Source: an uncultured Verrucomicrobiae bacterium
Lineage (GTDB): Bacteria > Verrucomicrobiota > Verrucomicrobiia > Limisphaerales > Palsa-1400
Assembly: GCA_963764165.1 (NCBI GenBank)
Contig: CAVXRD010000004.1
Coordinates: 464,164 to 528,163 of the forward strand
DNA length: 64,000 bases
Reading direction: 5' to 3'
Part shown: one piece after another, positions 1,634 through 20,751 of the stretch
Position numbering within the stretch: the stretch's first letter is position 1
Layout: the number at the start of each line of letters is the position of its first letter
The notes under the pieces: model-generated
Seen by the model: the letters and a program-made list of their open reading frames with translations, nothing else
Databases searched by the model: none
Told to the model about the DNA's origin: nothing
Position numbers and translations under genes: made by a program

Positions 1634-1643
1634 AAATTTCCTG

Positions 1644-1657
1644 TGCCGTAACTTCGC
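1644..1657 (+). promoter_or_regulatory. TGCCGTAA box, copy 1 (TGCCGTAACTTCGC)
   Basis: Intergenic; 25 nt before the ATG at 1669. Confidence 0.4.
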
Positions 1658-1668
1658 ATCGGGAGCGA

Positions 1669-2184
1669 ATGAAGTTCTCGGAAATCGTTTCGGCGCTGGC
1701 GAGCCTCACGGCAAAAATCACGGGCATTGAAGCCAAGGTCTCTGACCTCTCGGTTAAGGCCACCAATCCCAAGCCCATCTCCGACGAGGAACGCACCGCG
1801 TTCAACGCCGAGATCGCCGGCGTCAAAGCATCCGTCACTGAACTTCAAAACGGCCTGGTCGCAGCGACCACGGCCATTACCGAGGCCACCACGGCCAACA
1901 CAAATTTAACGGCGGAAATCGCTTCGCTCAAAACTCAGCTCACGGACAAGAAAGCCCTGGCCACGGCCGGAGTCGCTGCCGCGGCTGAATTGGCTGCGAG
2001 CCAGACCACGCAAGCGGTTTCGCCCAAGACCGATATCGACCCCTCCGGGAAAACGCCCGAGCAGCTTCTGCAAGCGCAGATGGCCGCGGCGACCAGCCCG
2101 AAGGAGAAAACCACCATCGCCCGCAAGCTGCGGGAATTGCGAGGAGTTTCGTTTGCCGGCCAGGAAATCAAAGCAACGGCGTAA
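1669..2184 (+). CDS. putative scaffolding / coiled-coil head protein
   Basis: Ala/Thr-rich, predicted coiled-coil protein between the protease and capsid genes. ATG at 1669 lies 25 nt after a TGCCGTAA box. A GTG at 1630 is an alternative start. Confidence 0.5.
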   Translation: MKFSEIVSALASLTAKITGIEAKVSDLSVKATNPKPISDEERTAFNAEIAGVKASVTELQNGLVAATTAITEATTANTNLTAEIASLKTQLTDKKALATAGVAAAAELAASQTTQAVSPKTDIDPSGKTPEQLLQAQMAAATSPKEKTTIARKLRELRGVSFAGQEIKATA

Positions 2185-2448
2185 GGGCAACGACGTCTGG
2201 CTCGGATCCCAGCGCGAAAAGGAAATCGGCTGGCTGCAGGCGCGGATGAAGGAGACGCCCGACGGCAAACAAAAGATGCGCCTGGCGCGGGAAGCGCGGT
2301 CGCTCCGGCACGGCACGGACATTTTGCGGGGCGGCCGCGACTACGACTTTAGCTCGGCGCTGCGCGGAGTGCGGCTGCCGGCGGTTCACTGACCCGCCTT
2401 CGCCGAAGCTTCGGCGCGGCGAGCAGTAGAGAAGAAAATAGAAATTTT

Positions 2449-3402
2449 ATGGCAACATTAAGCGCAGCGGAAATTCTGGCGGACACACTGGACGCCTTCA
2501 AAACGGAAGTGCCGATTCTCTCGGCGGTTTCCACCGACCTTTCGAGCGCGCGCGCGGTCAAGGGTTCGCAGATCATCGCGCACATTTCGGTTTTGCCGAC
2601 CGTGCAGGCGTATGACCCGGTGACAGGTTTCGCCAACGGCGCCACGGACGCCAGCAACCTCTTGCAGGACGTGCCGGTGACGATGAACTACTTGCCGCAC
2701 GTCCCGACCGACGTCACTTACCTGGATACGATCGCGTCGCAAAAGGATTTGTACAAGGAGGCGATTCGCAATTCCACGTACGTCCTAGGAAAGAACGTCG
2801 TCGATACGCTGCTTGGTTTCATCAACGGCCCGGGCGGAAACAATTTTTCCAACAAGTATCTCGCCTCCCTGGCGAATACCACTTTGGACACCGTCGAAGC
2901 CGTGAGGTCGCTCTTGAACACGAACCACGCCGCGACTGTGGGCCGCTTTGGAATCGTCAGCACCGGGTTTGCCCAGGCGCTGCAGGAAGATCAACGCACA
3001 ATGAGCGCGCTGTTCTACTCGCAGCTCAACGGCGACAACGCGCTGCGCCGCTTTCAGCGCATCGGCGGTTTCAGCAACATTTGGGAATACCCGGATATGC
3101 CGAACAACGGCATCAATCTGAGCGGCGCGTTTGCCGATCGCCGGGCCTTCACCGTGGCCACCCGCATTCCGACGCTGGGCGCTTTCGCCGGCAATCCGCT
3201 CAACGCGCCGATGACGGCCGCGTTCGAAGTCGTCGAGGATCCCGACAGCGGCCTGTCGCTCCTGGGCATCGTGTGGATTACCAACGGCACGTTCAACATG
3301 AACATGACGCGCACGTTCCTGTTCGGCATAAGCGCTGGCAATCAGGGCACTGGCAACGGCCAGAAGACGGACAACGCTTTGGTCTACACGACCACGGCCT
3401 AA
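2449..3402 (+). CDS. putative major capsid protein
   Basis: 317-aa ORF at the capsid position of a lambda-like head module. A-rich leader (agaagaaaatagaaatttt ATG) follows a GCCGAAGCTTCGGC palindrome. Confidence 0.6.
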   Translation: MATLSAAEILADTLDAFKTEVPILSAVSTDLSSARAVKGSQIIAHISVLPTVQAYDPVTGFANGATDASNLLQDVPVTMNYLPHVPTDVTYLDTIASQKDLYKEAIRNSTYVLGKNVVDTLLGFINGPGGNNFSNKYLASLANTTLDTVEAVRSLLNTNHAATVGRFGIVSTGFAQALQEDQRTMSALFYSQLNGDNALRRFQRIGGFSNIWEYPDMPNNGINLSGAFADRRAFTVATRIPTLGAFAGNPLNAPMTAAFEVVEDPDSGLSLLGIVWITNGTFNMNMTRTFLFGISAGNQGTGNGQKTDNALVYTTTA

Positions 3403-3437
3403 CGCGCAGACGGCGCAACGCATCTCGGAAAGCAAAT

Positions 3438-4088
3438 ATGTATATCGCAGTTGGATTTCCAAGCAGCGCCCGTGAAGACGGGGCTGAGGTGCTGTACGCC
3501 GGACAAGACAAAGGCGCGATGCTCAAGGCGATTGATGCCGCGATCGCCTCCAAGAAATTTCAACTGATCGGGAAGCTGCTCAGGCCGCTGTTTCAGAAAC
3601 ACACCATGACGCCCGGCGTGCATGTGATTGTCGATTGCAGCCCGGCCCACAACGCAGGTTTGAAAGCGCAAAGCGCGGCCCTCGCCTCCGGTGCGACTGC
3701 TGAGGAAGCGGCGTCCAAAGGCGCGAGCGTCAAGCTCGATGCCGCCAAAGCCAACGCCCTCTCGCTTGCCAAGCTCGCGGAGGACGAGCGCGGAAAATTT
3801 GCAAATTTGCAACGGGAGTGGCAACGCCAGATCGCGGCCGCCCCGGGTGACAACCGGCTCAAGGTGCACATCGGCCATTTGGAAACGCGGGCAAAAAATG
3901 TCGTGGACTCCGCGATAACGCTGGCGACGGAAGCAGCCGAACGCGCGACCGCCGCCGAGAAAGATTTAGCAGTCAAACAGAAAGCCGCCGAAGACGCGAA
4001 AGCCGCTGCCGAGAAAGCCGCGGCGGAAAAGGCGGACGCAGAAAAAGCCCAAGCCGAGGTTGAATCCAAAGGCAAAAAGAAAAAGTAA
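3438..4088 (+). CDS. hypothetical phage head-module protein with an Ala/Lys-rich coiled-coil C-terminus
   Basis: Start taken at MYIAVGFPSS inside ORF 3081..4088. The C-terminus is AAEKAAAEKADAEKAQAE...KKKK. Confidence 0.45.
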   Translation: MYIAVGFPSSAREDGAEVLYAGQDKGAMLKAIDAAIASKKFQLIGKLLRPLFQKHTMTPGVHVIVDCSPAHNAGLKAQSAALASGATAEEAASKGASVKLDAAKANALSLAKLAEDERGKFANLQREWQRQIAAAPGDNRLKVHIGHLETRAKNVVDSAITLATEAAERATAAEKDLAVKQKAAEDAKAAAEKAAAEKADAEKAQAEVESKGKKKK

Positions 4089-4089
4089 T

Positions 4090-4716
4090 ATGAAGTCCAT
4101 TAAAAATTTTGCAGTGATGATCGTGGTGTTGATCGCCATGCTGTTTGCCTCATTGCGCGCGCGCGCGCAAGGCGGCGGCAGCGCCCCGCAGAACCTGGGA
4201 CCGCAGGGCGCCACGACCGTTGTGCTGGCGACCAATTATCCTTTCGCCTCGCTGCCAGCCAGTTCCACCAACACGTTTCCGCAGACTTATACGGTCACGA
4301 ATATTTATTCGAACGTGTTCTCGATTCCGGTCACCTACGTGACAAACATCACCACTAACACGGTGACAGGTTATATTGACCTCACCGGCCAGCTCGATCT
4401 GGCGATCCAGACTGGTTTTTCATGCACGAACCCCACCGACGTTTCGAACGTGGTTTGGAAGCTGATGCCGTCCCTCGACGGGGTCAATGCCGATACGACG
4501 AACGCCGCCTGGTGGGTCACAAACACCAGCCCGGGCAGCAATGGGCTTGTGCAGACGACTGTTTTTTCCAGCGCCCAAAAATCAGGCATTGCCGGATTCT
4601 TTGTGGGAGAGGTCATCAACCTGAATACGAACCCAATTTTCCCGTTCTTGACCAACGCGACCGGCAGCAATTACCAGTTCATGCAGGTACGCGGAACGAA
4701 GCCTGTCCGTTATTGA
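4090..4716 (+). CDS. hypothetical secreted protein (signal peptide) in the head module
   Basis: MKSIKNFAVMIVVLIAMLFASLRARAQG is a classical signal peptide. ATG lies immediately after the stop of the previous gene. Confidence 0.5.
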   Translation: MKSIKNFAVMIVVLIAMLFASLRARAQGGGSAPQNLGPQGATTVVLATNYPFASLPASSTNTFPQTYTVTNIYSNVFSIPVTYVTNITTNTVTGYIDLTGQLDLAIQTGFSCTNPTDVSNVVWKLMPSLDGVNADTTNAAWWVTNTSPGSNGLVQTTVFSSAQKSGIAGFFVGEVINLNTNPIFPFLTNATGSNYQFMQVRGTKPVRY

Positions 4717-4717
4717 T

Positions 4718-5113
4718 ATGACGAAAGTAGCCCTTTTGCAATTGGCCCAGGCGACCGCCGCAACGGTGGTCACCGGGAGCGCGTCCGCCCTGGCGGCGGA
4801 TCAGGCGATGGTGAATGCCTTCGTCGGCACCGGCAATCCGGCGACGGATTATCCCGGGTTCAAGCAGAGTTTCGGCCGCGAGCTGCAAAGCTACCGCCAA
4901 GCTGCACAAGCCGACGCAGCGCCCGCGACCGCACCCGGCGCAGGCCCGAGGACGCAGGCGATCTCGGCTGAAGTCTTCGCCAAATTGCCGCCTGACATGC
5001 AGGCTCGATTGGTGGCGGCCAACCCGGCTCTTGCCAATGTGGTTGCGGCTGCGCCCGCGCCTGTATCCGCAACGGCTGCGGCTCCAGTTGCATCAGCGCC
5101 ACCGGCAGCGTAA
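4718..5113 (+). CDS. hypothetical Ala/Pro-rich phage protein
   Basis: ORF tightly packed after 4090..4716 and followed by an intrinsic terminator. Confidence 0.4.
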   Translation: MTKVALLQLAQATAATVVTGSASALAADQAMVNAFVGTGNPATDYPGFKQSFGRELQSYRQAAQADAAPATAPGAGPRTQAISAEVFAKLPPDMQARLVAANPALANVVAAAPAPVSATAAAPVASAPPAA

Positions 5114-5138
5114 GATCATTTTTTGTGTGGGGGGAATC

Positions 5139-5177
5139 GCGGGCGGCTTCTGTCGGGAGGCCGCCCGCATTTTTTTT
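5139..5177 (+). terminator. rho-independent terminator
   Basis: Stem GCGGGCGGC (5139-5147) pairs with GCCGCCCGC (5160-5168), with a 12-nt loop, followed by A + T8 (5170-5177). Confidence 0.65.
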
Positions 5178-5240
5178 CCAACCCTTGCCGCGCCGAAGCG
5201 CCAGCGAAGGCGGGTGCCGCAATTCCGCTGCTAGCTCAGA

Positions 5241-5564
5241 ATGAGCCCACTCGGCAGCATGCACAATCAGGCGCTTCGCGACTTGGAACGTCTCCTTAAA
5301 AATCCACAGTTGAAGTGGCTTGGCTTCCCTTATGTTTGCGCGCCCTCCACGCTCGAGCGCGGGCAGACCATCGGTTTCGGGGGCCGATTGTATGACGTCA
5401 AATTGACACTCACCGTGCGGACGGAAGTTATTAAAGGCGCGGCCAAACCGTTGGAGTCAGGAAAAGTCATCGAGTATGACGATGAACAATACCGCATCGC
5501 CGTCGCCAAGACCGCCTCCACCGGCGATCACATTCGCTTGACACTCATTGATCCCAACCGATGA
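5241..5564 (+). CDS. putative head-tail adaptor/connector protein
   Basis: 107-aa ORF in the position and size class of head-tail joining proteins. No recognised motif. Confidence 0.4.
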   Translation: MSPLGSMHNQALRDLERLLKNPQLKWLGFPYVCAPSTLERGQTIGFGGRLYDVKLTLTVRTEVIKGAAKPLESGKVIEYDDEQYRIAVAKTASTGDHIRLTLIDPNR

Positions 5565-5565
5565 C

Positions 5566-6393
5566 ATGGCCAGCGATATCCAATTCTCGGTCGACATGCA
5601 GTCGTTTGGCTCGCAGCTCGCGCGCCTGGCGATGGCATCGAGGAGGACGAACAAAGAGGTCCTGATTCAACAGTGCCGGATCATGGCGGTGGATTTAATC
5701 AGATCCACCCCGCCGACCGGCAACCGGCCTTTGACCGAATCTTTTGCCGCCCAAAAGAAAAAAGGCGAAATGTCGGTCGACCGCGATATCACCAGGCTTT
5801 TTCAGCCCCTGACGACCATTCGCGCCGTGCTCGATCCCATGCCGCGGCGCGGCCACTACAAACCGAGCAGGCTCGACTATTTGAAGCATCTCGCGGAACG
5901 CGGCCAGTTTCAGGAACTGAGCGAAGCGATGTTTGATATGCAGATTACGGACGAGCGCGTCCCGATCGTCGCCGCCATCACCACGGAAGAGTACCGCGCG
6001 GAGTGGATGCTCTTCGCCACGCGCGGGACCGTCAGCGCAAAGCGGGCCCGCCGCACGCTCGTGTGGGACAGCAGCGCCCTGGCGGTCGTGCGCGAAGAGG
6101 TGAAGAAACGCGTCGGCTGGGCCAAAGCCGGCTGGATGCCCGCCGCGCGCCACTTGCAGGCGAAACGGCTGCCGGCGTGGATCACCGACAAGAACGCCCC
6201 TGGCGGCTTCATTGACGACACCAACGATGCCGACGAGCCGGCATTCACTTTCATTAACAACGTCAAGTATATTGCATATTTGAACAATGGAAACCGGCTG
6301 TTGCTCCGGGTTATTCGCGAACGGCAGCGGGCCATGGAAATTTCCATTGAGCACGCGCTGGAGCATTACATCGAGGAGTTTAACGCGGCCTGA
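5566..6393 (+). CDS. hypothetical phage structural protein
   Basis: ATG lies 2 nt after the preceding stop (a TTG at 5548 is an alternative). Co-oriented and tightly packed in the structural module. Confidence 0.5.
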   Translation: MASDIQFSVDMQSFGSQLARLAMASRRTNKEVLIQQCRIMAVDLIRSTPPTGNRPLTESFAAQKKKGEMSVDRDITRLFQPLTTIRAVLDPMPRRGHYKPSRLDYLKHLAERGQFQELSEAMFDMQITDERVPIVAAITTEEYRAEWMLFATRGTVSAKRARRTLVWDSSALAVVREEVKKRVGWAKAGWMPAARHLQAKRLPAWITDKNAPGGFIDDTNDADEPAFTFINNVKYIAYLNNGNRLLLRVIRERQRAMEISIEHALEHYIEEFNAA

Positions 6394-6400
6394 CCGCCTC

Positions 6401-6414
6401 TACCGTAACTCCGG
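6401..6414 (+). promoter_or_regulatory. TGCCGTAA box, copy 2 (TACCGTAACTCCGG)
   Basis: Intergenic; 26 nt before the ATG at 6427. Confidence 0.35.
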
Positions 6415-6426
6415 GCCTCGGGCACG

Positions 6427-7464
6427 ATGGCAAAGGCCCCTTACAGTCCCGAACTGGATACGCTGGAGTTCCGCATCGAGGCGGCGCTGAAAACCTATTT
6501 GCTCTCGGTCGGCATCACCGGCAATCCGAACATTTACACCGGTGAAGAGACTGAGGACCGCGAGCTGCCCGCCATCGTTTGTGAATGCCACGGCGGCCCA
6601 GAGAATCCTCCCGGAACGAATAATTTTCTTGAGGACGCCACTGTTTGCATTGTCTCGAATGTTGACGAAACGGAGTCCGACGCGGATCCATTCCCGCCAG
6701 CCAGGCGGCTCGTTGAGCAAGTCAAGTATTGGTTGTGGGATGCTCTTCTCGACAGCAACGCGAATGAGCACTTGCACGAGATATTGACCGCTCAGGTGCC
6801 AAACCTTCAGGTGCAAAACCAAATTCAATTTCACGGCCCGGTCATCGCGATCCACGATCGCAAGATGATCACGGAATTGAAATTCACGATGCAGGCGTAT
6901 CAGGGCTTCAACGGCGTGGCTGGTCCGGCGCCGGGATTTTCGCTCCACACGCTTCTGCCCGTTGCCTGTGGCGTGGCGCAAGGAAGCACGGAATGCCACT
7001 GCCCGGCCGGGTCGACGACGATCGGCATTCTGCCAGGGATCGCCGGGAAAACGTATCAATACACTTTCCTGGTCAGCGGCCTGGTCGAGCTCAAGAGTTA
7101 CACTGGCGGAACGCAGAGCGGCTTTTTTTACACGGGCGGTTCCAACGCCAACGATGGCAACGCCAATTCGTACGGACTCGTCGTCACCACGCCCGCTAAT
7201 GCGCCCAACGTCACCGCCAGCCAAGGCCAGTTTTTCCTGAACGCGTCCACTGGCGGGGCTGGGAGGTACCAAAACAACGTCGTTCAATACAAAGTGACAC
7301 TGACAGCTCAGGCGGGACAGGCGATGGTGCTGACCACCAATTCATTCGACGGCTTCCAAGCCAGCAACCCCAACGCTCTGACCGTTCCCGGAATCACGTC
7401 CCCTGCGCAGCCGTTCAACGGGCAATTTATACGGCTCGATCTGGTCAACGCGGTGCAGGTGTAG
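6427..7464 (+). CDS. hypothetical phage structural protein (N-terminal part resembles tail-completion/DUF3168-type proteins)
   Basis: 345-aa ORF. A TACCGTAACTCC box starts 26 nt upstream of the ATG. Functional call rests on position only. Confidence 0.45.
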   Translation: MAKAPYSPELDTLEFRIEAALKTYLLSVGITGNPNIYTGEETEDRELPAIVCECHGGPENPPGTNNFLEDATVCIVSNVDETESDADPFPPARRLVEQVKYWLWDALLDSNANEHLHEILTAQVPNLQVQNQIQFHGPVIAIHDRKMITELKFTMQAYQGFNGVAGPAPGFSLHTLLPVACGVAQGSTECHCPAGSTTIGILPGIAGKTYQYTFLVSGLVELKSYTGGTQSGFFYTGGSNANDGNANSYGLVVTTPANAPNVTASQGQFFLNASTGGAGRYQNNVVQYKVTLTAQAGQAMVLTTNSFDGFQASNPNALTVPGITSPAQPFNGQFIRLDLVNAVQV

Positions 7465-8545
7465 CCGTTGCGTAACTGAGATCGACGAATTCGAGGTCGG
7501 GGTTAAACCACAGCACCGCCTCGCCCACCGTCGACGTGCATTTCAAAAAGAACTGACAACGGGAAAGTAGGTGCGCCTCAATTAGAACATCCTTGCCGAG
7601 GCGGTAGCCATTCAGCGAACGCTTTTGGAACACGTTCTTGTCCGTCCTGGATCGCACGGAGTTGTAACAAACAATTCGCCCTTCGTAGCGGTGCTTGAAC
7701 ATCTCCAGGTACTGCGCCTGGTCCGTGGCAACGAAAATTCTTGCATCTGGATGCGCGGACAGCATCGGATCAATCCGGTCGAAATAATCCTGAGGCTCGA
7801 TAATCCTCATGGCCCGCGGATTGGCCACGTTGGTGGCCTTGTCGGTCCCCCGCACATGAACTCCAATCACAAAACGCCCACTCATGTGGCGACCGTGGAA
7901 CTTGTCAATTTCCTCGCGAATGTGGCTTTTGATTTTGACATACTTTTTAATCAGAGCCGCGCCCTTGCTCCTCTGGAGCCGGTACCAGTCTGGATCGTAA
8001 TCGGCTTTCGCAAAATAAACCCCGTAGGGATAAGGAAACACGCTCTCGGGATCTTGGAAGTGGAGATGGTGCAGTTCATCCGCAGTCAGCTCGAACAATT
8101 TCCCAGGGACAGCGGCCCGCACATCCTCGTAAGTCAACCCGGCCACCGGCTCAAAGTAATAATTCCACATGTTGGAGCCGAAGCGTAAATCATAAAAATC
8201 ATTGCGACCGCTGCCGGCCCGCTTCCCAAAATAAACCACCGGGAAATAGCCGTTTCGCTCGCAAAGAGACAGTTGGTTCAACGCGAAAAGGAGATATCCG
8301 AAAAACCCGACATTGTGGCTCTTAAGGGTGATGACCATGATCGCGTTGAATTCGGCGCAAGCAGCGATGGAAACGGTCCGCAAACTCTCTTCTTTCCGGA
8401 AACGCGAGATAGAGCGAACGGTCGAGGGTTTGAGAGAGTCGATGGCAAAAGACCCCAGGGCAATGCAGTCGGCGACGAAATACCTCCGCATCCAGCCCGC
8501 CGCGATGACAACGGCCGGAAGACGATTTTTAAGAAATGTCTTCAA
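7445..8545 (-). CDS. glycosyltransferase-like protein (fucosyltransferase/GT23-65-68-like HxRxxD motif), antisense moron
   Basis: Only minus-strand gene in the head-tail module. Motif FVIGVHVRGTDK resembles the conserved HVRxGD motif of GT-B fucosyltransferase-like enzymes. An internal start at 8338 (MVITLKSHNVGFFGYL) is possible. Confidence 0.5.
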   Translation of the reverse strand: MKTFLKNRLPAVVIAAGWMRRYFVADCIALGSFAIDSLKPSTVRSISRFRKEESLRTVSIAACAEFNAIMVITLKSHNVGFFGYLLFALNQLSLCERNGYFPVVYFGKRAGSGRNDFYDLRFGSNMWNYYFEPVAGLTYEDVRAAVPGKLFELTADELHHLHFQDPESVFPYPYGVYFAKADYDPDWYRLQRSKGAALIKKYVKIKSHIREEIDKFHGRHMSGRFVIGVHVRGTDKATNVANPRAMRIIEPQDYFDRIDPMLSAHPDARIFVATDQAQYLEMFKHRYEGRIVCYNSVRSRTDKNVFQKRSLNGYRLGKDVLIEAHLLSRCQFFLKCTSTVGEAVLWFNPDLEFVDLSYATATPAPR

Positions 8546-8592
8546 CGGGTACCAATGATAGCGATCCCTGGCGGCCCTGTCAGGCTTTAATG

Positions 8593-8606
8593 TGCCGTAA
8601 CTTCAA
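8593..8606 (+). promoter_or_regulatory. TGCCGTAA box, copy 3 (TGCCGTAACTTCAA)
   Basis: Intergenic; 26 nt before the ATG at 8619. Confidence 0.4.
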
Positions 8607-8618
8607 CCGTAGGGCGAT

Positions 8619-9032: not shown

Positions 9033-9044
9033 GCGCGGCGGTCC

Positions 9045-9659: not shown

Positions 9660-10991
9660 ATGGGCCTTCACGTCAAAACATCCGTCGACGGCCACGGCTT
9701 CGCCGCCGGCCTGAAAAAGATGGAGGAGGACGCCGAGCATTTCGGCAAAAACCTCTCAGAGAAAATCTCCGGGCATTTCGGAGAAGCAGTCATGGGGGTT
9801 ATCCCCGGTCTGACTAGCTCCATTGCAGGCGTTTTTGCGGCGGAAAAAATCAAGGAATCGCTCAAGGAATTTGGCGAGCAGGCCGAACGCATTGAATTTG
9901 GCTCCATCCGTCTCAACGTCGATCCAGAAACATTTCAGCGGCTCGACCGGGTGATGAAAGTCACCGGCGAGACCGCCGAGACGGCCGCGACTGCCTTCGA
10001 CAAACTGGCTGTGTCCGCCACGAAAATCGAGGACGGCCGCGACAAGACAGGAGAGCTGCGCCAGGCCTTCGCGGAGCTGGGTGTCACCACGGATGAGCTG
10101 GCGAGCAAGGATTACCGCAAAATATTTTTCCAGATCGCCGAAGGCTTGAAGGATATCGAGCCGAGCAAAGAGCAGATCGCTGCGCTGCGCGAGGTCTTCG
10201 GCAAGCAGGGCGATAATTTGCTGCCCGCGTTCAAGCTTGGTTTTGACAGCGACTACGCCACGGCCGGCGTCCTGGATGAGAAGGAATTGCAGGGCATCAA
10301 GGCGGTGAATGATGAATGGCGCAAACAGGGTGCAACCACGGCTGGAATGTGGAACACCACGAAACGGGCCGCGCTTGAGGCTGCGTCCGGCCTCGCCCTC
10401 ATGATCAACCCATTTAGATGGGCACAGAATTTGGGCACGCCTGATGAGGACGGATACCACCAAAAATTCATGGCCGAGGAAGCCAAACGCCTCGCCGAGA
10501 TCACCGCCGAGAAGCGGAAGCAGGCGGCCGCGCAGGAAGCGCTGCATGAGGCGAATAGGAAATCGGACGAAGCGGATCGCAAGAAAGCCGCCACGATCGA
10601 CAAGGAGACGGAAGCGCTAAAGGAGCGCAACCGGATCGCCGCCATGACGCCTGAGGAAAAGCGGCTTTATTTGCTCGATCAAATCCGGCAGATGCAGGGC
10701 GAACTGGATTACGGCGCCGGAAACAGCCGGGCGGATGACGCGACGTTGCGCAAAAAAATTGCCGAAGCGCAGCATGAAATTTCGCAGCTCGACAAGGTTA
10801 AGCCGAAGGCCGTCCACGAACATCTTTCTCATCTAGGCAACCAGGCCATCGGCGGAATCATGATGGGACACGACCGGCTAAACGAGATGGCCGCGCATAC
10901 GCGCCGGTCGGCGGAACACCTCGCGAGCATCGACAAGAAAATGGCCGCGCGGCAGCCGTCCGGCCGCACGCAGCATCACGACCTGCCGTAA
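9660..10991 (+). CDS. tail tape measure protein (short, 443 aa)
   Basis: Helical and repeat-rich. Segments such as AFDKLAVSATKIEDGRDKTGELRQAFAELGVTTDEL are typical of tape measure core regions. Gene order supports the call. Confidence 0.7.
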   Translation: MGLHVKTSVDGHGFAAGLKKMEEDAEHFGKNLSEKISGHFGEAVMGVIPGLTSSIAGVFAAEKIKESLKEFGEQAERIEFGSIRLNVDPETFQRLDRVMKVTGETAETAATAFDKLAVSATKIEDGRDKTGELRQAFAELGVTTDELASKDYRKIFFQIAEGLKDIEPSKEQIAALREVFGKQGDNLLPAFKLGFDSDYATAGVLDEKELQGIKAVNDEWRKQGATTAGMWNTTKRAALEAASGLALMINPFRWAQNLGTPDEDGYHQKFMAEEAKRLAEITAEKRKQAAAQEALHEANRKSDEADRKKAATIDKETEALKERNRIAAMTPEEKRLYLLDQIRQMQGELDYGAGNSRADDATLRKKIAEAQHEISQLDKVKPKAVHEHLSHLGNQAIGGIMMGHDRLNEMAAHTRRSAEHLASIDKKMAARQPSGRTQHHDLP

Positions 10992-10997
10992 TACCGC
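10984..10997 (+). promoter_or_regulatory. TGCCGTAA box, copy 4 (TGCCGTAATACCGC)
   Basis: Its TAA is the tape measure stop codon; 25 nt before the ATG at 11009. Confidence 0.4.
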
Positions 10998-11008
10998 AGT
11001 CATGGTGT

Positions 11009-11383
11009 ATGAATATAACACCTGAACGGATTGCGGACGCGATCGCTCGCGGCCTCTGCGCAAGATGTTTGCGCCGCAAACATCGTCCCGGCATGCGAAC
11101 GTGCAGCTATTGCGGCCATCTGGACGCGGCACACAAAAAAAGCCACGTCGAGAGACTGAAAAAGAAAGGCGGCTGTTTCCGCTGCGCACGGCCCGCGCTG
11201 CCTGGGCGTAAACGTTGCGAGCCATGCACCATATTTCACAATGCCTATTGCGTCGCGAAGAGAAAATCATGGAAGGCGGCTGGGCTTTGCACGGGCTGCG
11301 GAAAGGGCACGCCTGCCGAGGGCAAGACCAGATGCCAGCGGTGCATAGACTGCGGCGCGCGCCGCAAGCGGTCGATGCCGTAA
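11009..11383 (+). CDS. Cys-rich protein with three tandem CxxC-x10/11-CxxC zinc-ribbon units
   Basis: CARC..x11..CSYC; CFRC..x10..CEPC; CTGC..x11..CQRCIDC. TGCCGTAA boxes lie both upstream of the gene and at its stop codon. Confidence 0.55.
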   Translation: MNITPERIADAIARGLCARCLRRKHRPGMRTCSYCGHLDAAHKKSHVERLKKKGGCFRCARPALPGRKRCEPCTIFHNAYCVAKRKSWKAAGLCTGCGKGTPAEGKTRCQRCIDCGARRKRSMP

Positions 11384-11389
11384 GTACGC
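11376..11389 (+). promoter_or_regulatory. TGCCGTAA box, copy 5 (TGCCGTAAGTACGC)
   Basis: Its TAA is the stop codon of 11009..11383; 26 nt before the ATG at 11402. Confidence 0.4.
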
Positions 11390-11401
11390 CCCAGAGTCAC
11401 A

Positions 11402-12175: not shown

Positions 12176-13242
12176 TGAACCTCCCTGAGCCACTTCCAGA
12201 GACAGACGATTTCCGCCTCAAAGGTCTTTTCAGTTGGTGCAACCGCCTTCGCGATTACGCGCAGTCAATAACCCTGATGCGCAGCGCCGACTCCAGGCTT
12301 GAGCGCACGCCTGCCGGCACGCTGCTTCGACCGGCGCGGGATTCAACGCCGCGCGATCTCGGCATTCGCAGCGTCACGAATTGGTATCTGCCTCCGATCA
12401 CTATCACCGAGACGGATCGCGACGGCTTTTCCAATCCGCGCCAATTCACCTGGAATGGTTTGATCGCGTTTGGCCCCTGGGTCGGCGGCGCGGCCGCCAA
12501 CGAAGAAAACATTTACGGAACCGGCGGATACGGCAGCGACACTTTGTTTGCATTCGATTACGGAGTATCGGGTTTCGTTGACGGAGAAAACACCAGCCCG
12601 CCAAGCAATTTTGTGTGGGACATCGATCCAGTTGTCTGGCCGGGCTTCGCCGATTTCCAGGACGCGGCCGACAACGCGGCCTTCTACCTCGTCGACTTGC
12701 CGCCGACCCTTCGCAATCAAATCGTGGGCGGCACATTCACTCAGCAGGATCAGCGCGAAACAGGACTCACCGAATGGCTGTTTGACTACGCTTACGCTAA
12801 CGGACAGCCCACCTTGCCCCAGATTTACGACCGCTACCCTTTTGATTCTACCAATGGCACATATTACGGCGACGGCGTCGGAAACGGCACCGGCAGCGGA
12901 GCGGCTACAGATGATTACACGGCTTATATCGAGCCGAGCTATTTCCCCGGCTCAACGCTCTACATTGCGAACCCCAACAGACTGCGCACCAGTCGCCGTT
13001 ACTTTTACCAGGATGCCTATTTCGGGGCGACGATTGAGCTGAACATGGGATGGGTTGACTTGAACGTGGACGCCCGCCGCTGGATGGCCGCCGGTTTGGT
13101 GGAAAACCACATGAGAGTGCAGATCGCTACGAACGGGTCGGGAGTAATGATCCCACCGCCAAACGCCTCAGTCGGCCTGGACGGCAACCTTTACGTCCCC
13201 GTCAACCAGGACTCAAATTACTATCCCGCCAACACGATTTAG
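12175..13242 (+). CDS. hypothetical tail/baseplate protein
   Basis: Start taken at MNLPEPLPETDDF. Its ATG shares one nucleotide with the upstream TGA (TGATG). Confidence 0.45.
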   Translation: MNLPEPLPETDDFRLKGLFSWCNRLRDYAQSITLMRSADSRLERTPAGTLLRPARDSTPRDLGIRSVTNWYLPPITITETDRDGFSNPRQFTWNGLIAFGPWVGGAAANEENIYGTGGYGSDTLFAFDYGVSGFVDGENTSPPSNFVWDIDPVVWPGFADFQDAADNAAFYLVDLPPTLRNQIVGGTFTQQDQRETGLTEWLFDYAYANGQPTLPQIYDRYPFDSTNGTYYGDGVGNGTGSGAATDDYTAYIEPSYFPGSTLYIANPNRLRTSRRYFYQDAYFGATIELNMGWVDLNVDARRWMAAGLVENHMRVQIATNGSGVMIPPPNASVGLDGNLYVPVNQDSNYYPANTI

Positions 13243-13436
13243 CCATAGCCATGCTTCGCCGCCTCGGCGTCCGCGACGCTGGCGAGCCATCCGCTCAGAT
13301 TGGATTTGCTCTTCTGCGCGGCCTTGACCCAAGCCGATTTTTGCCGGGGGCGGACACGCAGCTTCACGATAGCGGTGGATGAATCCTGGCGGTGATTTCC
13401 CGGCCAATCGGCTTTTGGGTTGTTAGAATCGTTCAT
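13239..13436 (-). CDS. ribbon-helix-helix (Arc/CopG-like) DNA-binding protein
   Basis: IVKLRVRPRQKSAWVKAAQKSKSNLSGWLASVAD fits the RHH strand-helix-helix pattern. Its start overlaps the stop of the upstream RHH-like ORF by ATGA. Confidence 0.55.
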   Translation of the reverse strand: MNDSNNPKADWPGNHRQDSSTAIVKLRVRPRQKSAWVKAAQKSKSNLSGWLASVADAEAAKHGYG

Positions 13437-13567
13437 TGCATCTCGCTCATTAACGGAAGTTTCCTGTCAAGAATCTGAATCGCATAGTCCAGCGGGGCAA
13501 CCCCTTTGAGCTTTGCCGCGCGCCGCAGCCTGGCGGAAAGGGTTTCCGGAAGTCGCGCCAGGCTAAT
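13433..13567 (-). CDS. second RHH-like ORF lacking a canonical start codon (possibly decayed)
   Basis: ISLARLPETLSARLRRAAKLKGVAPLDYAIQILDRKL fits an RHH pattern. There is no in-frame ATG/GTG/TTG; the nearest candidates are ATT or CTG. Confidence 0.3.
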   Translation of the reverse strand: MSLARLPETLSARLRRAAKLKGVAPLDYAIQILDRKLPLMSEMQ

Positions 13568-13596
13568 CTGGCGGGGCTTCGGATCGCATGCATACG

Positions 13597-13610
13597 TGCC
13601 GTAAGTACGC
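13597..13610 (+). promoter_or_regulatory. TGCCGTAA box, copy 6 (TGCCGTAAGTACGC)
   Basis: Intergenic; 28 nt before the ATG at 13625. Its 14 nt are identical to copy 5. Confidence 0.4.
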
Positions 13611-13624
13611 CCCTCAGTCGAACG

Positions 13625-14458: not shown

Positions 14459-14462
14459 TTTT

Positions 14463-17400
14463 ATGATTTTCACAGAAGCCAACGAAGGAAACGAAGGGAA
14501 AATTGCGAGGAGCGCTTTGCCCAAGTTTCTCCGATTTATTTTCCCCCTTTGTGTCCTTTGTTACCTTCTGTTAAATCCCCGGGTCCAGGCCCAGCTCGTC
14601 ACCAGCCCGACCGGGCGAGCGATCGCCACCATCACCAACGGGACCAGCAACCTTGTCCTGACGGCCCAGGGCGGCAGCGCCCCGCCCGTCTGGGCCCCGG
14701 CATCGGGCTCCGGAAGCTCGACGACCATCAACGGCCTGACCGGCGCCGTCAGCGTCATCATCACAAACATCGGCGGGAATTCAGGGATGACAGAAGTCTT
14801 GTTGACCAACGGAAACTATTTGCTGATCTCCAATAATTGGAGCCAGGTCGCCACGCTCGCGTTGCTTGCGGCCCAGGGAACGGCCGACACAAATTACGCG
14901 CTAGCGATCGGCGCAGCGCTGACGAACGCGCTCGCCGCGCAAGGCGTCTCCGTGACAAATTTCGCGAATGCTGGTCTGGCTGCGCAGGGAGCGGCCGTCA
15001 CGAATTTTGCCAAAGCAATCGGATCCGCAATCACCAACGCGCTCGCCGCGCAAGGAACGGTGCAGACCAATTACACCCTCGCCGTCGGCGCGGCGATTAC
15101 CAACGCGCTGAATTTTGAAATCGCGGCCGCCGGAGCGCAAGCCACCAATTACGCCAACGGCATAAGTTCCGCGATTTATGTCTCGCTGGGATCGGCGGGA
15201 GCGGCGATTACCAATTTCGTCAACGCCGGTTTGGCGGCCCAGGGCACGGCCACCACGAACTTTGCCAAGGGCGTCGGAACATCCGTGACCAATGCGCTGG
15301 CCACACAAGGAATGGCCAACACGAATTTCGCCAGCGGCATCGGAACCAGCGTCACCAACGCCATCGCCGCCGGTGGAACGGCCGCGACCAATTACGTTAT
15401 CGCCTCGCTCGCCGCGCAAGGCACGGCCACCACGAATGCGATCAAAGCGGCCACGAATACAATCGCGTCCGGATCGCTGGCCGGCGCGCTCCCCTACTCC
15501 GTTTACCCGTCGGGAATTTCAGGAACAGTTCTGTCAAACACAGGCAGCGCGGTCGTGTGGGCCGCATCGCCGACCGGCGGTGGAACGGCAGGCATCGGCA
15601 CGCTCAACGGCGTCGGCACCAACACGTATTTGACAAACGCCACGACCAGCGGCGAGACCGCGACAAATCTAGCCATTTCGACCGGCGCGACAAAAACCAA
15701 CGGGACCGGATCGGCAGGCTTCACCGAAAACATCAACCTCGGCCCGAGCGGAATTTATCAAACCGTCGTCTCAGAAAACGCCGTCCACAAATGGAGCGTC
15801 CTGCAGACGGGAACGCTTTGGGAAATCCTCGATGGCAACAGCCAGGTCGCCTTCGCCATCAATCAGGCCTCCGGCGATGTCATCTTTGGCAACGGAGGAT
15901 TGTTGACCAACATCCTCATTTCGGCGCTGCAATCCAACAACGCGGCCGCGGGAACGTACTACGCATTGACCAATACCGGCAGCGGCCTGGCTCTCATGCA
16001 GATTACCGCCATTGCCGGCGTCAACGGTCAGGCCACCAATACTTACACCACGAACGGTTTCACCAGCGGCGAAACAGCGACCAATCTGACCATCTCGACC
16101 GGCGCGACAAAAACCAACGGGACCGCCTCGGCGGGATTCACGGAGAATATCAACCTTGGCCCGAGCGGGATTTATCAAACGGTCGTTTCCCAGAATGGCG
16201 TGGGAAAATGGCACGTCTTGCAGACCGCAACACTTTGGGAAATTCTCGACTCGGCCAACAATGTCGCCTTCCAAATCAACCAGGCATCCGGCGATGTCAT
16301 TTTTGGCAATGGCGGATTGTTGACAAACATTCTGATCGCCGGAATTTCCAGCAACGGCGTCACGGCCGGAAGCGTTTTCGTCGTCACCAACACAGGCGCG
16401 GGCCTCGGCTTCATGCTCGCCCCTGCGGCCAGCGGGATCAACACGAGCGGCGGCTTTGGCACCAACAATTATTTGACCAACGCCACGACCAGCGGCGAGC
16501 ACGCCACCAATTTGACCATCGCCAGCGGCAACGCCGGCGGCGCAACGAACCTGAACGCGAATGCCTTCACCGGAGGCACAACCGCACTCACCAATCACAA
16601 CGCGGCCGTGGCCAATTTCGGAAGCAACGTGGTTACGGCCGCAACGAACGTCAGCGGAGCCATCGCCAATTCCGGAACTTTCTCCACCGACGGCGGAAAC
16701 ATCAGCAGCGACGCTCTTGGCCACCTGTCCATTTCGCCGAATGAAAACAACGGCGTTGGCTTGACTGTTAGCCAGGATCAGGCCGGCGACGACATTGCGG
16801 ATTTCACCGATTGGAACGGCAATTTGATCTTTCAGCTCGACGGACCGAATCAGCAAGCGAAACTGGCCGCGCCCTGGATTTACGCTGGCAACGGCAGCGA
16901 CCTCACGACCCTTAACGCCTCGCAATTAACCAGCGGCACGGTGCTTCCCGCGCGTCTCGGCGGCGGATCCCCCAGCTCGAGCACGGTTTTGTACGGCAAT
17001 TCCACTTGGGGCCCCATCGTCGGCGGCAGCGGGATCGCGACCAGCGGCGGCGCCGGCACCAACAATTATTTAACGAACGCCACCACGAGTGGAGAGAGCG
17101 CAACGAATCTCACCATCGTGAGCGGCAACATTTCAGGGGCGACCAACCTGCCCGTTTCGGCGCTCAAGACAAACGGCCTGACGGCCGGAAGCGTCTACGT
17201 CCTGACCAATTCTGGAAGCGGAATGACCGTGATGGTTGCTCCGTCTGGAGGCGGCGGAGGAGGCTCGGGAATTCCAACCATCGCAGGCGTCGGCACCAAC
17301 ACGTATTTAACCAATGCGACGAGCAGCGGCGAGATTGCGACAAACATCAGCATTATCAGCGGTAATATTTCTGGAGCGACAAATCTCCCGCCGTCAGGCC

Positions 17401-19532
17401 TGAGCAGCGGCAGCGCGTCTGCAGGGCAAGTGCTCGAATGGAGCGGCACGGCTTGGGTTCCAACGTCCATCAGCAGCTATCTCAATTTCACAACGGTCGG
17501 CGGCGTCAACGATGGCGTCACTCTAAATGATGCAGCGTTCTCGAACGCGTGCGCAGCCCTCGGCCCGGCAGGCGGCGTGCTCTATATGCCGAAAGGCAGC
17601 GGCTACAAATTCAAAGGCGGCATCATCATCACCAATCAGCAGATCACGATCCAGGGCGACGGCATGGGTGTCTACGGCGGATTGGGCGAGCCGGACGTTT
17701 TCAGCAGCGTCATCATCTGGACCAATCTGACGACCAATCTCTTCACCTTCACAGGACAGTCAATAACATTTCAAAATCTCTCAGGATTCTGGACAAACAC
17801 CGCCGCGCCGACCGCTGGCGCGTTCATCGCCGTCACCACCAATTGGGACGGCGTCAATGGACAGGTGCAATGCAACTGGCTCAACGTGCTTTTGGATGGT
17901 GGATATCGCTGTGTTGATTATCAAGCCGGGCAGAACTGGCAGGCGACTCAATTGGAATGGGTGCGCTGGTGGATGGACGGCATCCGCATCAACAATTTGG
18001 CCAATCCAGACATCGGAGGCTGGACGATCACCGGCAGCGGTTGGGCTGCCGTGGCTGGCCTGCAATACACTATAGGAGCGCATGTTGCTAACAGCGCCAT
18101 TTGCTGGAACGGATCAGGCGGCGGCTCGATCATCAACACGGGCGGAGGCGCATTCAATTGGGGCGGGTATAGCGACCCCGGCGGCTACACCAATGCCATC
18201 TTGATCCAGCCGGAATATCCATCCGGCGCGGATTCCACCAGCACGTTCTTCATTAACAACGCGCTCATCGACAATTATCTTGTGCATGGAATTTACTCCG
18301 AGCCAGGCACGGGATCTTTCTCCAACATCAAATTCGTTCAGGTCCAAATGGAGTCTTTTGTCGGCGGCGCATCGTCAGCAATTTTGCTAACGGGCGGAAT
18401 TGGAAATAACGGCACCATTGACGGGTTTTCAACAGAACAGCCTATTGCCAATCAAATCACCTTGAGCGGAATGGCTGGCATCGGCCTCGGTTTGATTAAC
18501 AACAGCGGAGTGGAACCTAGCGTCGAATTGCTCAGCGCATCGACCTGCTACCCATTCTCTGATTTCACCGGCATTTTTGATCCCTTCGCCGGAAATCCAC
18601 AATTGAAGATCGGATCATGGTTTTTGCAATCGCTTAACACGAACGATACCACCCTCGGATTCAACGGCTACTTCACCGGAAGCGGTTTGACCGCGAAGCA
18701 AACCGGCGCGGTCGCGACCATCCAGGGACTCAACCAGGGCGGCATGTTCATGACGCTCTACGGCCAGACAACCGCTGGAGCCGTCGTCGGCAGCCCCACG
18801 CAAATATTCGCCGTGCGGCCAGGCGGCATCGGCATCGGAACGTTCACGCCCGCGGCGGAACTCACAGTCAACGGGGCGGCCATTGTGAGCAACAGCGTGA
18901 CCGCAAACGGCGGATTCATTGGGCTCGGCAGCGCCCTGACCAATTCCGCGGGACACAATTATCAGGACGGAGTCCAGGCAACGAACATGTTTGCCACGCT
19001 CGCCGCAACTCAGCCGACGAACCTTACTTTGACACAGATCGCCAGTCAGACGTCCACGGCGATCAACGGCGCCGGCATAACGAACATCCCTTTGTCTGGT
19101 GCGGTTGCTGGCGGAAACACCATCGCTACAAACGGCCAGGCAACCGCAACCAATAATATTGGTTTTGTGCTTCGAGCCGAAGCTTTGACCCTCAACACCT
19201 CGGCAAATTATTTCGCGCCATCTTACAATTCCACCGGAGGCACGGAGGTAAACAAGGCGTCGGGGCTGCTCGGCGGAGTCTACGGAGACAACGTGACTGT
19301 CAACTTCTCTGCCACCAATTTGCCTGGGACTAACGTCTACATAATTTGGAGAACCAACCAGATTTCTTGTGCAACCAATGTGATTTCCGGCCCCATCACG
19401 CCATTGCAACCGTACACATTTTCAAACCCACTCACCGTGACAAACGGAACAACGTGGGATTTCATCATCACGAACAGCGTAAGCACGACCGGGTACTACA
19501 TCACGATGGCAGTGAGCCAGAGGCCGCTATGA
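14463..19532 (+). CDS. tail fibre/tailspike with Ala-rich repeats, duplicated ~139-aa modules and a pectate-lyase-like beta-helix domain
   Basis: About 23-aa repeats AAQGTATTNFAKGVGTSVTNALA. The motif GTNTYLTNATTSGETATNL occurs five times. FTTVGGVNDGVTLNDAAFSNACAALGPAGGVLYMPKGSGYKF matches the N-terminal signature of the Pectate_lyase_3/tailspike family. Confidence 0.8.
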   Translation: MIFTEANEGNEGKIARSALPKFLRFIFPLCVLCYLLLNPRVQAQLVTSPTGRAIATITNGTSNLVLTAQGGSAPPVWAPASGSGSSTTINGLTGAVSVIITNIGGNSGMTEVLLTNGNYLLISNNWSQVATLALLAAQGTADTNYALAIGAALTNALAAQGVSVTNFANAGLAAQGAAVTNFAKAIGSAITNALAAQGTVQTNYTLAVGAAITNALNFEIAAAGAQATNYANGISSAIYVSLGSAGAAITNFVNAGLAAQGTATTNFAKGVGTSVTNALATQGMANTNFASGIGTSVTNAIAAGGTAATNYVIASLAAQGTATTNAIKAATNTIASGSLAGALPYSVYPSGISGTVLSNTGSAVVWAASPTGGGTAGIGTLNGVGTNTYLTNATTSGETATNLAISTGATKTNGTGSAGFTENINLGPSGIYQTVVSENAVHKWSVLQTGTLWEILDGNSQVAFAINQASGDVIFGNGGLLTNILISALQSNNAAAGTYYALTNTGSGLALMQITAIAGVNGQATNTYTTNGFTSGETATNLTISTGATKTNGTASAGFTENINLGPSGIYQTVVSQNGVGKWHVLQTATLWEILDSANNVAFQINQASGDVIFGNGGLLTNILIAGISSNGVTAGSVFVVTNTGAGLGFMLAPAASGINTSGGFGTNNYLTNATTSGEHATNLTIASGNAGGATNLNANAFTGGTTALTNHNAAVANFGSNVVTAATNVSGAIANSGTFSTDGGNISSDALGHLSISPNENNGVGLTVSQDQAGDDIADFTDWNGNLIFQLDGPNQQAKLAAPWIYAGNGSDLTTLNASQLTSGTVLPARLGGGSPSSSTVLYGNSTWGPIVGGSGIATSGGAGTNNYLTNATTSGESATNLTIVSGNISGATNLPVSALKTNGLTAGSVYVLTNSGSGMTVMVAPSGGGGGGSGIPTIAGVGTNTYLTNATSSGEIATNISIISGNISGATNLPPSGLSSGSASAGQVLEWSGTAWVPTSISSYLNFTTVGGVNDGVTLNDAAFSNACAALGPAGGVLYMPKGSGYKFKGGIIITNQQITIQGDGMGVYGGLGEPDVFSSVIIWTNLTTNLFTFTGQSITFQNLSGFWTNTAAPTAGAFIAVTTNWDGVNGQVQCNWLNVLLDGGYRCVDYQAGQNWQATQLEWVRWWMDGIRINNLANPDIGGWTITGSGWAAVAGLQYTIGAHVANSAICWNGSGGGSIINTGGGAFNWGGYSDPGGYTNAILIQPEYPSGADSTSTFFINNALIDNYLVHGIYSEPGTGSFSNIKFVQVQMESFVGGASSAILLTGGIGNNGTIDGFSTEQPIANQITLSGMAGIGLGLINNSGVEPSVELLSASTCYPFSDFTGIFDPFAGNPQLKIGSWFLQSLNTNDTTLGFNGYFTGSGLTAKQTGAVATIQGLNQGGMFMTLYGQTTAGAVVGSPTQIFAVRPGGIGIGTFTPAAELTVNGAAIVSNSVTANGGFIGLGSALTNSAGHNYQDGVQATNMFATLAATQPTNLTLTQIASQTSTAINGAGITNIPLSGAVAGGNTIATNGQATATNNIGFVLRAEALTLNTSANYFAPSYNSTGGTEVNKASGLLGGVYGDNVTVNFSATNLPGTNVYIIWRTNQISCATNVISGPITPLQPYTFSNPLTVTNGTTWDFIITNSVSTTGYYITMAVSQRPL
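14473..14570. repeat. REP-like imperfect inverted repeat (about 31-bp arms, about 34-nt loop) inside the 5' end of the tail fibre ORF
   Basis: CAGAAGCCAACGAAGGAAACGAAGGGAAAAT (14473-14503) pairs with ATTTTCCCCCTTTGTGTCCTTTGTTACCTTCTG (14538-14570). Several mismatches are G-U compatible. Confidence 0.6.
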
Positions 19533-19543
19533 CCTTCATGACA

Positions 19544-19557
19544 TGCCGTAAGTTCGC
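19544..19557 (+). promoter_or_regulatory. TGCCGTAA box, copy 7 (TGCCGTAAGTTCGC)
   Basis: Lies 12 nt after the tail fibre stop; 25 nt before the ATG at 19569 and 39 nt before the ATG at 19583. Confidence 0.4.
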
Positions 19558-19582
19558 GCTGGGGTCGGATGGCGAATGATCG

Positions 19583-20669: not shown

Positions 20670-20751
20670 ACCGGTAGCCGTGAACTATAGATTACAGCCA
20701 TGAATTTCATCGGCCCGAATATTCAGCGCGATTGCCAGCGCCTTCAACTGG

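Follow-up and report, generated by a model that had tools for sequence, protein, structure and literature searches.

The late promoters of phage T4 (TATAAATA), which are used with gp55, are of a single-element type. Stoperators, known from cluster A phages such as L5, are asymmetric sequences of 13-14 bp that are present in many copies and in one orientation, occupy short intergenic gaps or positions over stop or start codons, and are specific to each lineage. They occur in both genome arms, match the operator at the early promoter and are not set at a fixed distance from start codons. The phage-encoded sigma factors of phiEco32 (TAATGTATA, gp36) and phage 7-11 likewise use single-element promoters, which are 9-12 bp long (PMC4331800). 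The start-associated sequences (SAS) of cluster K mycobacteriophages, for which stoperators have been cited as a contrast (PMC3203893), are asymmetric repeats of approximately 13 bp that are found in 11-19 copies, all in one orientation, at a near-fixed distance before mostly ATG start codons (PMC3203893; PMC12699233). Some SAS overlap the upstream stop codon, and they are confined to one half of the genome, missing from the host and retained at the same gene families across subclusters; their function is unproven (PMC3203893; PMC12699233). Here we describe a 10-base box with the consensus TGCCGTAAnT that lies approximately 25 bases 5' of the start codon at about one-third of the packaging, head and tail genes of a prophage. 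The prophage is located at one end of a 64,000-nucleotide stretch of DNA from an uncultured Verrucomicrobiae bacterium (contig CAVXRD010000004.1, positions 464,164 to 528,163), which we refer to as the window. To our knowledge, gene regulation in phages of Verrucomicrobia is almost entirely unexplored. The box is a real, conserved, phage-specific cis element of late genes, and it joins the known class of phage-specific repeated regulatory boxes.

Like the promoters of T4, phiEco32 and 7-11, the box is a short asymmetric element (about 8-12 bp) that lacks a -35 sequence, precedes many late genes in the direction of transcription, is absent from host DNA and is specific to each phage group. In contrast to those promoters, it contains G and C rather than only A and T and is locked to the start codon at 25-26 nucleotides (nt). 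Moreover, T4, phiEco32 and 7-11 are lytic phages with a recognizable sigma factor, whereas none was found in the early genes available here. With SAS the box shares its asymmetry, single orientation, near-fixed distance to the start codon, restriction to one class of genes and absence from the host. However, SAS lie 3-7 bp from the start codon and contain an AGGAG ribosome-binding core, whereas the box ends at least 11-12 nt before the start and has no such core. SAS also mark non-structural genes, whereas the box marks packaging and structural genes, and the two have no sequence similarity. The difference from stoperators is that no box is found in the early or repressor-proximal region. By eye, the core GCCGTAA resembles the sigma-28 element GCCGATAA or a CGT-containing -10 element of the ECF type, a likeness that we take to be a lead only. 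Promoters of group 3/4 sigma factors, however, require a -35 element (TAAA or GGAAC) at a set distance, whereas the box has no conserved position on its upstream side.

Box sites in the prophage

The right part of the prophage occupies window positions 1 to approximately 21300 and is transcribed on the + strand, with host genes beyond it. A preliminary description of the window had listed seven boxes on this strand, and both their coordinates and their distances to the ATG (25, 26, 26, 25, 26, 28 and 25 nt) proved to be correct. We scanned both strands of the window (approximately 128,000 positions) with a 12-position weight matrix built from 15 sites in related phages only. The seven listed sites take ranks 1-6 and 9, and each has an ATG 25-28 nt downstream; an ATG at 22-28 nt is present for only 8.9% of window positions. 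All high-scoring sites are on the coding strand. The matrix also recovered an eighth site, at 5215, that was absent from the earlier list. It revealed no comparable box 5' of host genes, as had been stated before, and a match at 41187 in the host part lies inside an open reading frame (ORF; 40831-41685). A proposed degenerate copy, TAGCCGTGAACTAT at 20675..20688 (+), scores less than 8 bits with the matrix from the relatives and can be aligned only with two insertions. This sequence is doubtful and is probably not a member of the family.

Simple counts of the motif point in the same direction. The exact sequence TGCCGTAA occurs nine times in the window versus 1.5 expected, and none of 100 shuffles contained nine or more copies. 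Six of the nine are listed sites, and the other three (46475, 46802 and 55872) are in the host part with no start codon 20-30 nt downstream. When one mismatch is permitted in the 12-mer, there are seven matches in the window versus 0.56 expected. A de novo k-mer search anchored on every possible start codon was too noisy in this G/C-rich DNA and was replaced by synteny-guided inspection and the matrix.

The first box, TGCCGTAACTTCGC (1644..1657, +; 16.6 bits), lies 25 nt before ATG 1669, the start of a gene that comes after the head protease gene and opens the unit containing the major capsid gene. The newly recovered site is a variant, TGCCGCAATTCCGC (5215..5228, +; 11.7 bits; TGCCGCAATT at 5215), located 26 nt before ATG 5241. 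The same distance separates TACCGTAACTCCGG (6401..6414, +; 16.4 bits) from ATG 6427, where the gene for a 345-aa tail-region protein begins, and TGCCGTAACTTCAA (8593..8606, +) from ATG 8619; the latter box adjoins a minus-strand fucosyltransferase gene (7445-8545). An inserted gene at 11009-11383 has a box on each side: TGCCGTAATACCGC (10984..10997, +; 13.9 bits) is 25 nt from ATG 11009, and TGCCGTAAGTACGC (11376..11389, +) is 26 nt from ATG 11402. At these two sites the preceding ORF, namely the tape-measure-like gene (9660-10991) and ORF 11009-11383, respectively, terminates at the TAA within the box, as previously noted. The sequence TGCCGTAAGTACGC recurs at 13597..13610 (+), 28 nt before ATG 13625 and after a 355-nt gap that holds a small minus-strand ORF (13239-13436). 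The last box in the window, TGCCGTAAGTTCGC (19544..19557, +; 15.6 bits), is 25 nt from ATG 19569, and it is uncertain whether 19569 or 19583 is the true start. Two overlapping ORFs are located 3' of this box. The box spacing predicts a start at 19569, but the product of the 19583 frame, which has one membrane helix and a coiled coil, looks more like a genuine protein than that of the 19569 frame.

Additional boxes are present in the same prophage to the left of the window. A Logan contig that is identical to the window (L034/L049; L049 coordinate = L034 + 2178) carries the prophage 9.7 kb further left, and this extension holds the small and large terminase genes, three small genes and the portal gene. 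It contains at least four further boxes. The variant TGCCGCAATT lies 26 nt before the ATG of the small terminase gene, and TGCCGTAAGTACGC lies 26 nt before the start of the gene upstream of the portal gene. Two more are found just 3' of the large terminase gene (L034 5175 and 5261, equal to L049 7353 and 7439), with an ATG at 24 and 22 nt, respectively, that opens only a mini-ORF.

The anatomy of the box was derived from 27 compiled sites. Fourteen of them lie 26 nt from the start codon, five 25 nt, four 24 nt and two 23 nt, with single sites at 22 nt and 28 nt. Information is found only at box positions 1-8 and 10 (T-G-C-C-G-T-A-A-n-T), where T6, A7 and A8 are nearly invariant and T10 is present in 24 of the 27 sites. 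Positions 12-17 are G or C in 80-95% of cases. The only A/T-rich patch is therefore the hexamer TAAnTn at the end of the core, followed by a G/C-rich stretch, an arrangement that by its sequence resembles a -10 element plus discriminator. Positions -40 to -1 relative to the box have zero information content, such that no -35 element is conserved, and none of the boxes coincided with a sigma-70-type site in a consensus scan. The box is an asymmetric element that points in the direction of its genes in every case, and its end is 15-16 nt from the ATG (11-12 nt for the 14-mer). RNAalifold predicted no pairs, and hence no common RNA fold, for 22 aligned sites, and the only Rfam match in the window was a tRNA, with none in four related loci.

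Conservation at the same late genes

Searches with the capsid protein, ORF 11402, the large terminase and the portal protein uncovered five lineages of related phages with extensive synteny. In four of these (L032/L057, L044+L050, L048 and L060; capsid identity approximately 67-73%) the same genes have retained the box at its usual distance amid diverged flanks. Core and spacing are found even where protein identity is no more than 40-70% and the flanks can no longer be aligned. In L032/L057 (capsid 67%), TGCCGTAAnT is located 25-26 nt 5' of the homologues of genes 1669, 5241, 6427, 8619, 11402 and 13625 (the last with a GTG start) and of the pre-portal gene. L044 and L050 (capsid 73%), which are contiguous via a 99-nt overlap, carry TGCGGTAATT, TACCGTAATT, TGCCGTAATT or TGCTGTAACT 23-26 nt 5' of eight genes, including the homologues of 5241, 8619, 11402 and 13625 and, with a variant box, that of 1669. 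One canonical and two shortened boxes (TGTAAT/TGTAAC) are present in L048 (capsid 67%), where the homologue of 8619 has a box and that of 1669 a variant. In L060 (capsid 69%) a box lies 25 nt 5' of the gene 1669 homologue.

The fifth lineage, L046/L047 (capsid 65%), lacks TGCCGTAAnT. Instead, it has four exact copies of a different sequence, TTCCGAATCGTTTGAA, 32-33 nt 5' of the ATG of the pre-portal, 1669, 8619 and 13625 homologues, and this sequence has no copy in the window. That the box sequence is specific to the lineage while its positions are conserved argues for a co-evolving, phage-encoded reader rather than a feature of the host ribosome or a host sigma factor. The box offers a handle on the late regulator, including through the comparison of proteins between the TGCCGTAAnT and TTCCGAATCGTTTGAA lineages.

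Individual sites in these relatives show how the box behaves in unusual settings. At L050 9469 it is kept even within a coding 3' end, and at one site (L057 703) it lies 41 nt from the real ATG. At L057 590-652, a box whose TAA ends the large terminase gene is accompanied by an inverted copy 43 nt downstream (CTGCCGTAAGT ... AGTTACGGCAG), which together form a long hairpin. The window's own prophage has two direct box copies after this gene, each with a mini-ORF, where L057 has the inverted pair.

More distant capsid relatives at 39-47% identity (L027-L031, L036-L043 and L055) have no other gene in common with the prophage and no box, and no box was found in L054 (capsid 50%). A scan of a genome collection with ORF 6427-7464 gave 24 Verrucomicrobiota loci (L001-L024) that have only a C-terminal domain in common, do not represent related prophages and show no enrichment of TGCCGTAA. 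Contig ends were considered as a proxy for transcript ends and set aside, as the short Logan contig L060 does not begin at its box. Other repeats are present in these phages. In L053 (capsid approximately 50%; 560-6480), an intergenic element, CTGAAAACTCACGTTTCCAGCTACG, with an 8-bp hairpin precedes five late genes at a variable distance of 6-37 nt, and one copy, CTGAGAAC...GTTCTCAG, shows compensatory changes. L044 (4700-12860) carries a second intergenic repeat family, the G/C-rich hairpin GCCGCGTGGGGGCACGCGGC and its variants, without a T-run. It is located 3' of at least six late genes, sometimes with a box directly after it.

An early region was available for one boxed phage only, L050+L044, where a cI-like helix-turn-helix (HTH) repressor gene on the opposite strand is accompanied by 15 early genes on the plus strand. 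None of these 15 early genes is boxed versus eight of 28 late genes (p = 0.02), which makes the box a late-gene feature. No box is present in L050 1-6900, a region that includes the divergent repressor/cro-like region, and the first box of this phage overlaps the stop codon of the last early gene, 23 nt 5' of the small terminase start. The box is a conserved, easily scored marker of late-gene starts in this phage family, one that helps to call start codons and to define transcription units.

Start regions of boxed genes are also distinct in composition. In the last 12 nt before the start codon, A+T is 34% in boxed versus 59% in unboxed late genes (p = 8e-6), and such G/C-rich sequence fits start codons near an mRNA 5' end. 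Shine-Dalgarno sequences between box and ATG are inconsistent, as the preliminary description had observed, and the majority of the window's host genes and of the unboxed phage genes lack them as well.

A putative late promoter and its alternatives

The most likely reading, to which we assign a probability of roughly one-half, is that the box would serve as a -10-type, phage-specific late promoter, used by the host polymerase together with a putative phage factor. We infer promoter action from several features of the sites: the restriction to late genes, the presence of a box at the first late gene, the lack of a -35 element, the A/T hexamer followed by G and C, the terminators found upstream of boxes and the lineage-specific sequence. 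A late-promoter-like element had been among three roles offered earlier. The second of these, a binding site for a phage regulator, fits the different box in one lineage. The third was a signal for re-initiation or processing; re-initiation is unsupported because most boxes lie well past the upstream stop codon, and processing is a minor possibility.

The arrangement of terminators is of particular relevance here. Five strong intergenic intrinsic terminators on the plus strand of the late regions, with stems of 8-15 bp, end 9-51 nt 5' of a box. The one in the window (5139-5168, +, or 5139..5178 with its T8 run) has a 13-bp stem, marks the head/tail boundary and is 46 nt from box 5215. Others, likewise on the + strand, are located at L044 8236-8274 (15-bp stem, 11 nt to the box), L032 5710-5733 (10-bp stem, 51 nt), L048 955-974 (8-bp stem, 9 nt) and L046 7685-7708 (10-bp stem, 16 nt to the different box of that lineage). 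A head/tail-boundary terminator precedes the homologues of gene 5241 in the window, L044 and L032, and also in L046 (10787-10810), where no recognizable box follows. The L046 terminator at 7685 precedes the scaffold-like and capsid genes, whose expression must be the strongest of all, and a terminator in that place is sensible only if transcription restarts behind it.

A late promoter of this kind might operate as follows. After induction, a small phage-encoded specificity factor, either a sigma-like protein or a co-activator, would redirect the host RNA polymerase, which in the factor-bound form would recognize TGCCGTAAnT without a -35 element. With the geometry of the sigma-70 family, transcription is predicted to start approximately 6-8 nt past TAAnTn (unit positions 17-19), giving leaders of approximately 7-9 nt. 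Such leaders would account for the constant distance as well as for the unusual G/C-rich sequence 5' of the start codons, and the resulting short-leader mRNAs would be translated in a host where most genes do without Shine-Dalgarno sequences. Recurring promoters in the packaging, head and tail region, several of them after intrinsic terminators, would create a chain of short transcription units and might allow expression to rise at chosen genes, for example in the unit containing the capsid gene.

Other promoter types were considered and rejected. Leaderless transcripts, a sigma-54 promoter and an activator site at -35 or -41 all fail on geometry, since they would either move the transcription start to the conserved ATG or past it or require base conservation that is not seen. 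For sigma-54, whose promoters have GG at -24 and GC at -12 with 10-11 bases between them, there is no conserved GG at the required distance 5' of the TGC of the box. A canonical sigma-70 promoter is not seen at the 27 sites, which have no TTGACA-like -35 hexamer 16-18 bp upstream.

Several observations weigh against a late promoter. The sixth base of the would-be hexamer is T, C or A and is not conserved, though it is critical for sigma-70. The mRNA leaders that this reading implies would be very short. A distance to the start codon that is kept this tightly is rarely seen with promoters and is what a translation element would show. Searches of the available early genes of L049, L050 and L046 against Pfam and PHROG identified no sigma factor, RNA polymerase or known late activator. 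The terminators may also be attenuators, with the downstream genes reached by read-through, such that the argument from them is only suggestive. The association of terminators with boxes has p ~0.02, which is a rough estimate given that both features are limited to intergenic DNA. Three further points against a promoter count at the same time in favor of an element that is read on the mRNA: the box stays tied to the ATG where the upstream gene or terminator is 50-350 nt away; the coupling holds at the two boxes that precede only mini-ORFs (L049 7353 and 7439, at 24 and 22 nt); and conservation within each phage runs approximately 10 nt beyond the box, more than a -10 element requires.

The main rival reading, to which we give a probability of roughly one-quarter, is that the box would be a start-codon-associated element in the 5' leader of selected late genes, through which a phage RNA-binding protein or small RNA controls translation initiation or mRNA stability. 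The spacing falls within 22-28 nt at all 27 compiled sites from four lineages and is 32-33 nt for the other box. Many leaders have a G-run at a possible Shine-Dalgarno position, and the boxed genes form a distinct class of initiation region. SAS, as asymmetric, one-orientation, gene-class-specific repeats by start codons, provide a precedent (PMC3203893). If it is true that the coupling reflects translation, the box would be a second, independent example of start-associated sequences, beyond mycobacteria. The box might act as a translational switch for packaging and virion genes, in a phylum with little Shine-Dalgarno initiation, and be read by a factor whose specificity differs by lineage or, in a variant of this idea, it might be a promoter that yields uniform leaders of approximately 7-9 nt, with translation depending on closeness to the 5' end; we give this a similar probability. 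However, the strong terminators 9-51 nt upstream would cut off an mRNA that was meant to carry the element, and the late region opens with a box, 5' of the small terminase gene, at a point that calls for a promoter. In addition, the ribosome-binding site is not in the box, no structure is common to the sites, the box at L057 703 is 41 nt from the real ATG, and no RNA-binding protein was identified.

Cleavage of the late polycistronic transcript at the box by a phage or host endonuclease, which would produce gene-sized pieces with short uniform leaders and new 3' ends shielded by upstream hairpins, has a precedent in the RNase III sites of T7. It would account for the hairpins upstream of many boxes and for the uniform distance to the ATG, but it is unlikely, since the box lacks double-stranded structure, the hairpins 5' of it show the T-runs of terminators, and a box precedes the first late gene, where cutting is unneeded. 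A stoperator-like role, in which a phage repressor bound to the DNA blocks elongating polymerase and keeps the late genes silent in the lysogen, agrees with the asymmetry and single orientation of the sites, their intergenic location or overlap with stop codons, their many copies, their lineage-specific sequence and their presence in a prophage. We consider it quite unlikely nonetheless: no box is found by the cI-like HTH repressor gene (divergent region) or elsewhere in the early region (L050/L051), and a fixed spacing to start codons is not a property of stoperators. Finally, the boxes might be passive, functionless remnants of a short cassette that spread together with genes or through gene conversion. 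Some copies do share longer identity, such as a 58-nt repeat and 26-28 nt at L049 8538 and window 13597, and the inserted gene 11009-11383 is bordered by boxes. This explanation is very improbable in view of the retention of core and spacing at 40-70% protein identity amid unalignable flanks, the other box at the same positions in L046, and the box kept inside a coding 3' end (L050 9469).

Candidate factors, insertions and local repeats

Comparison of early regions by BLAST, in search of the putative factor, identified two small proteins common to L049 and L051, one of which is winged-helix-like by eye. All five lineages conserve a protein of 181-205 aa whose gene lies outside the window, between those for the large terminase and the portal protein (L049 7780-8325). 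Its C-terminal part has a faint HTH similar to LuxR/sigma region 4 (GerE, E = 0.11; PHROG 'transcriptional regulator', E = 0.014), and hhalign aligns it in register with a GerE protein of L054 (E = 0.29). Searches of PDB sequences and NCBIfam with the factor candidates gave no match. A putative recognition helix that co-varies with the box type was also considered, but in L046 this stretch is no more divergent than the protein as a whole, and the difference is not evidence. On the basis of these sequence similarities, the HTH-like protein is a candidate factor, not a finding.

The prophage is a temperate, lambda-like siphovirus of Verrucomicrobia, and a megablast of window positions 1-22000 against deposited phages gave no matches. 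The window has a G+C content of 56.6%. On the + strand, the 3' end of the portal gene at the left edge of the window is followed by genes for an S49-type head protease (815-1633), a capsid-like protein (2449-3402), the tape-measure-like protein described above and a 1689-aa protein (14463-19532), and a holin-like gene is also present in the right part of the prophage. The host part encodes alpha-2-macroglobulin, Tex and tRNA-Arg, and named homologues of Tex with 80-84% identity come from Verrucomicrobiae and Verrucomicrobiota. In the leftward extension, approximately 1.5 kb of G/C-rich DNA between the last early gene and the small terminase gene (L049 ~3250-4800) has no convincing ORF on either strand; its translations are Arg/Ala/Pro-rich junk, and an Rfam search gave no match. 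This region could contain the cos/packaging region or an uncharacterized RNA.

Boxes 8593 and 13597 come directly after the two minus-strand insertions in the window. One of these insertions (7445-8545, -) lies amid the tail genes and encodes a 366-aa NodZ/FUT8-like fucosyltransferase, with matches to both Pfam families above the cut-offs. The 3' end of this gene overlaps gene 6427-7464 by 20 nt, and a sigma-70-like promoter, CTGACA-17-TATCAT, is present at 8583..8555. The gene is absent from all related phages and is probably inserted cargo that is expressed in the lysogen. The other insertion (13239-13436, -) is a 65-aa ORF with coding-like composition and a weak match to the TacA1 antitoxin (E = 0.007, below the cut-off). 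The inserted gene 11009-11383 (+) encodes a Cys-rich, basic protein of 124 aa with several CxxC pairs, which has no family match and is absent from all relatives.

Longer repeats accompany some boxes. A near-identical stretch of 26-28 nt is found at L049 8538 and window 13597, and the 58-nt repeat, which is 78% identical, is common to box 5215 and the box before the gene upstream of the portal gene. The latter repeat includes two of the three copies of a shorter sequence, CGCCGAAGC..GCG(AAGGCGGG), which are located at window 2401-2416, window 5187-5214 and L049 8510-8537; these two copies immediately precede boxes. The third copy, GCCGAAGCTTCGGC, is perfectly palindromic and lies 33 nt 5' of the capsid gene, itself unboxed.

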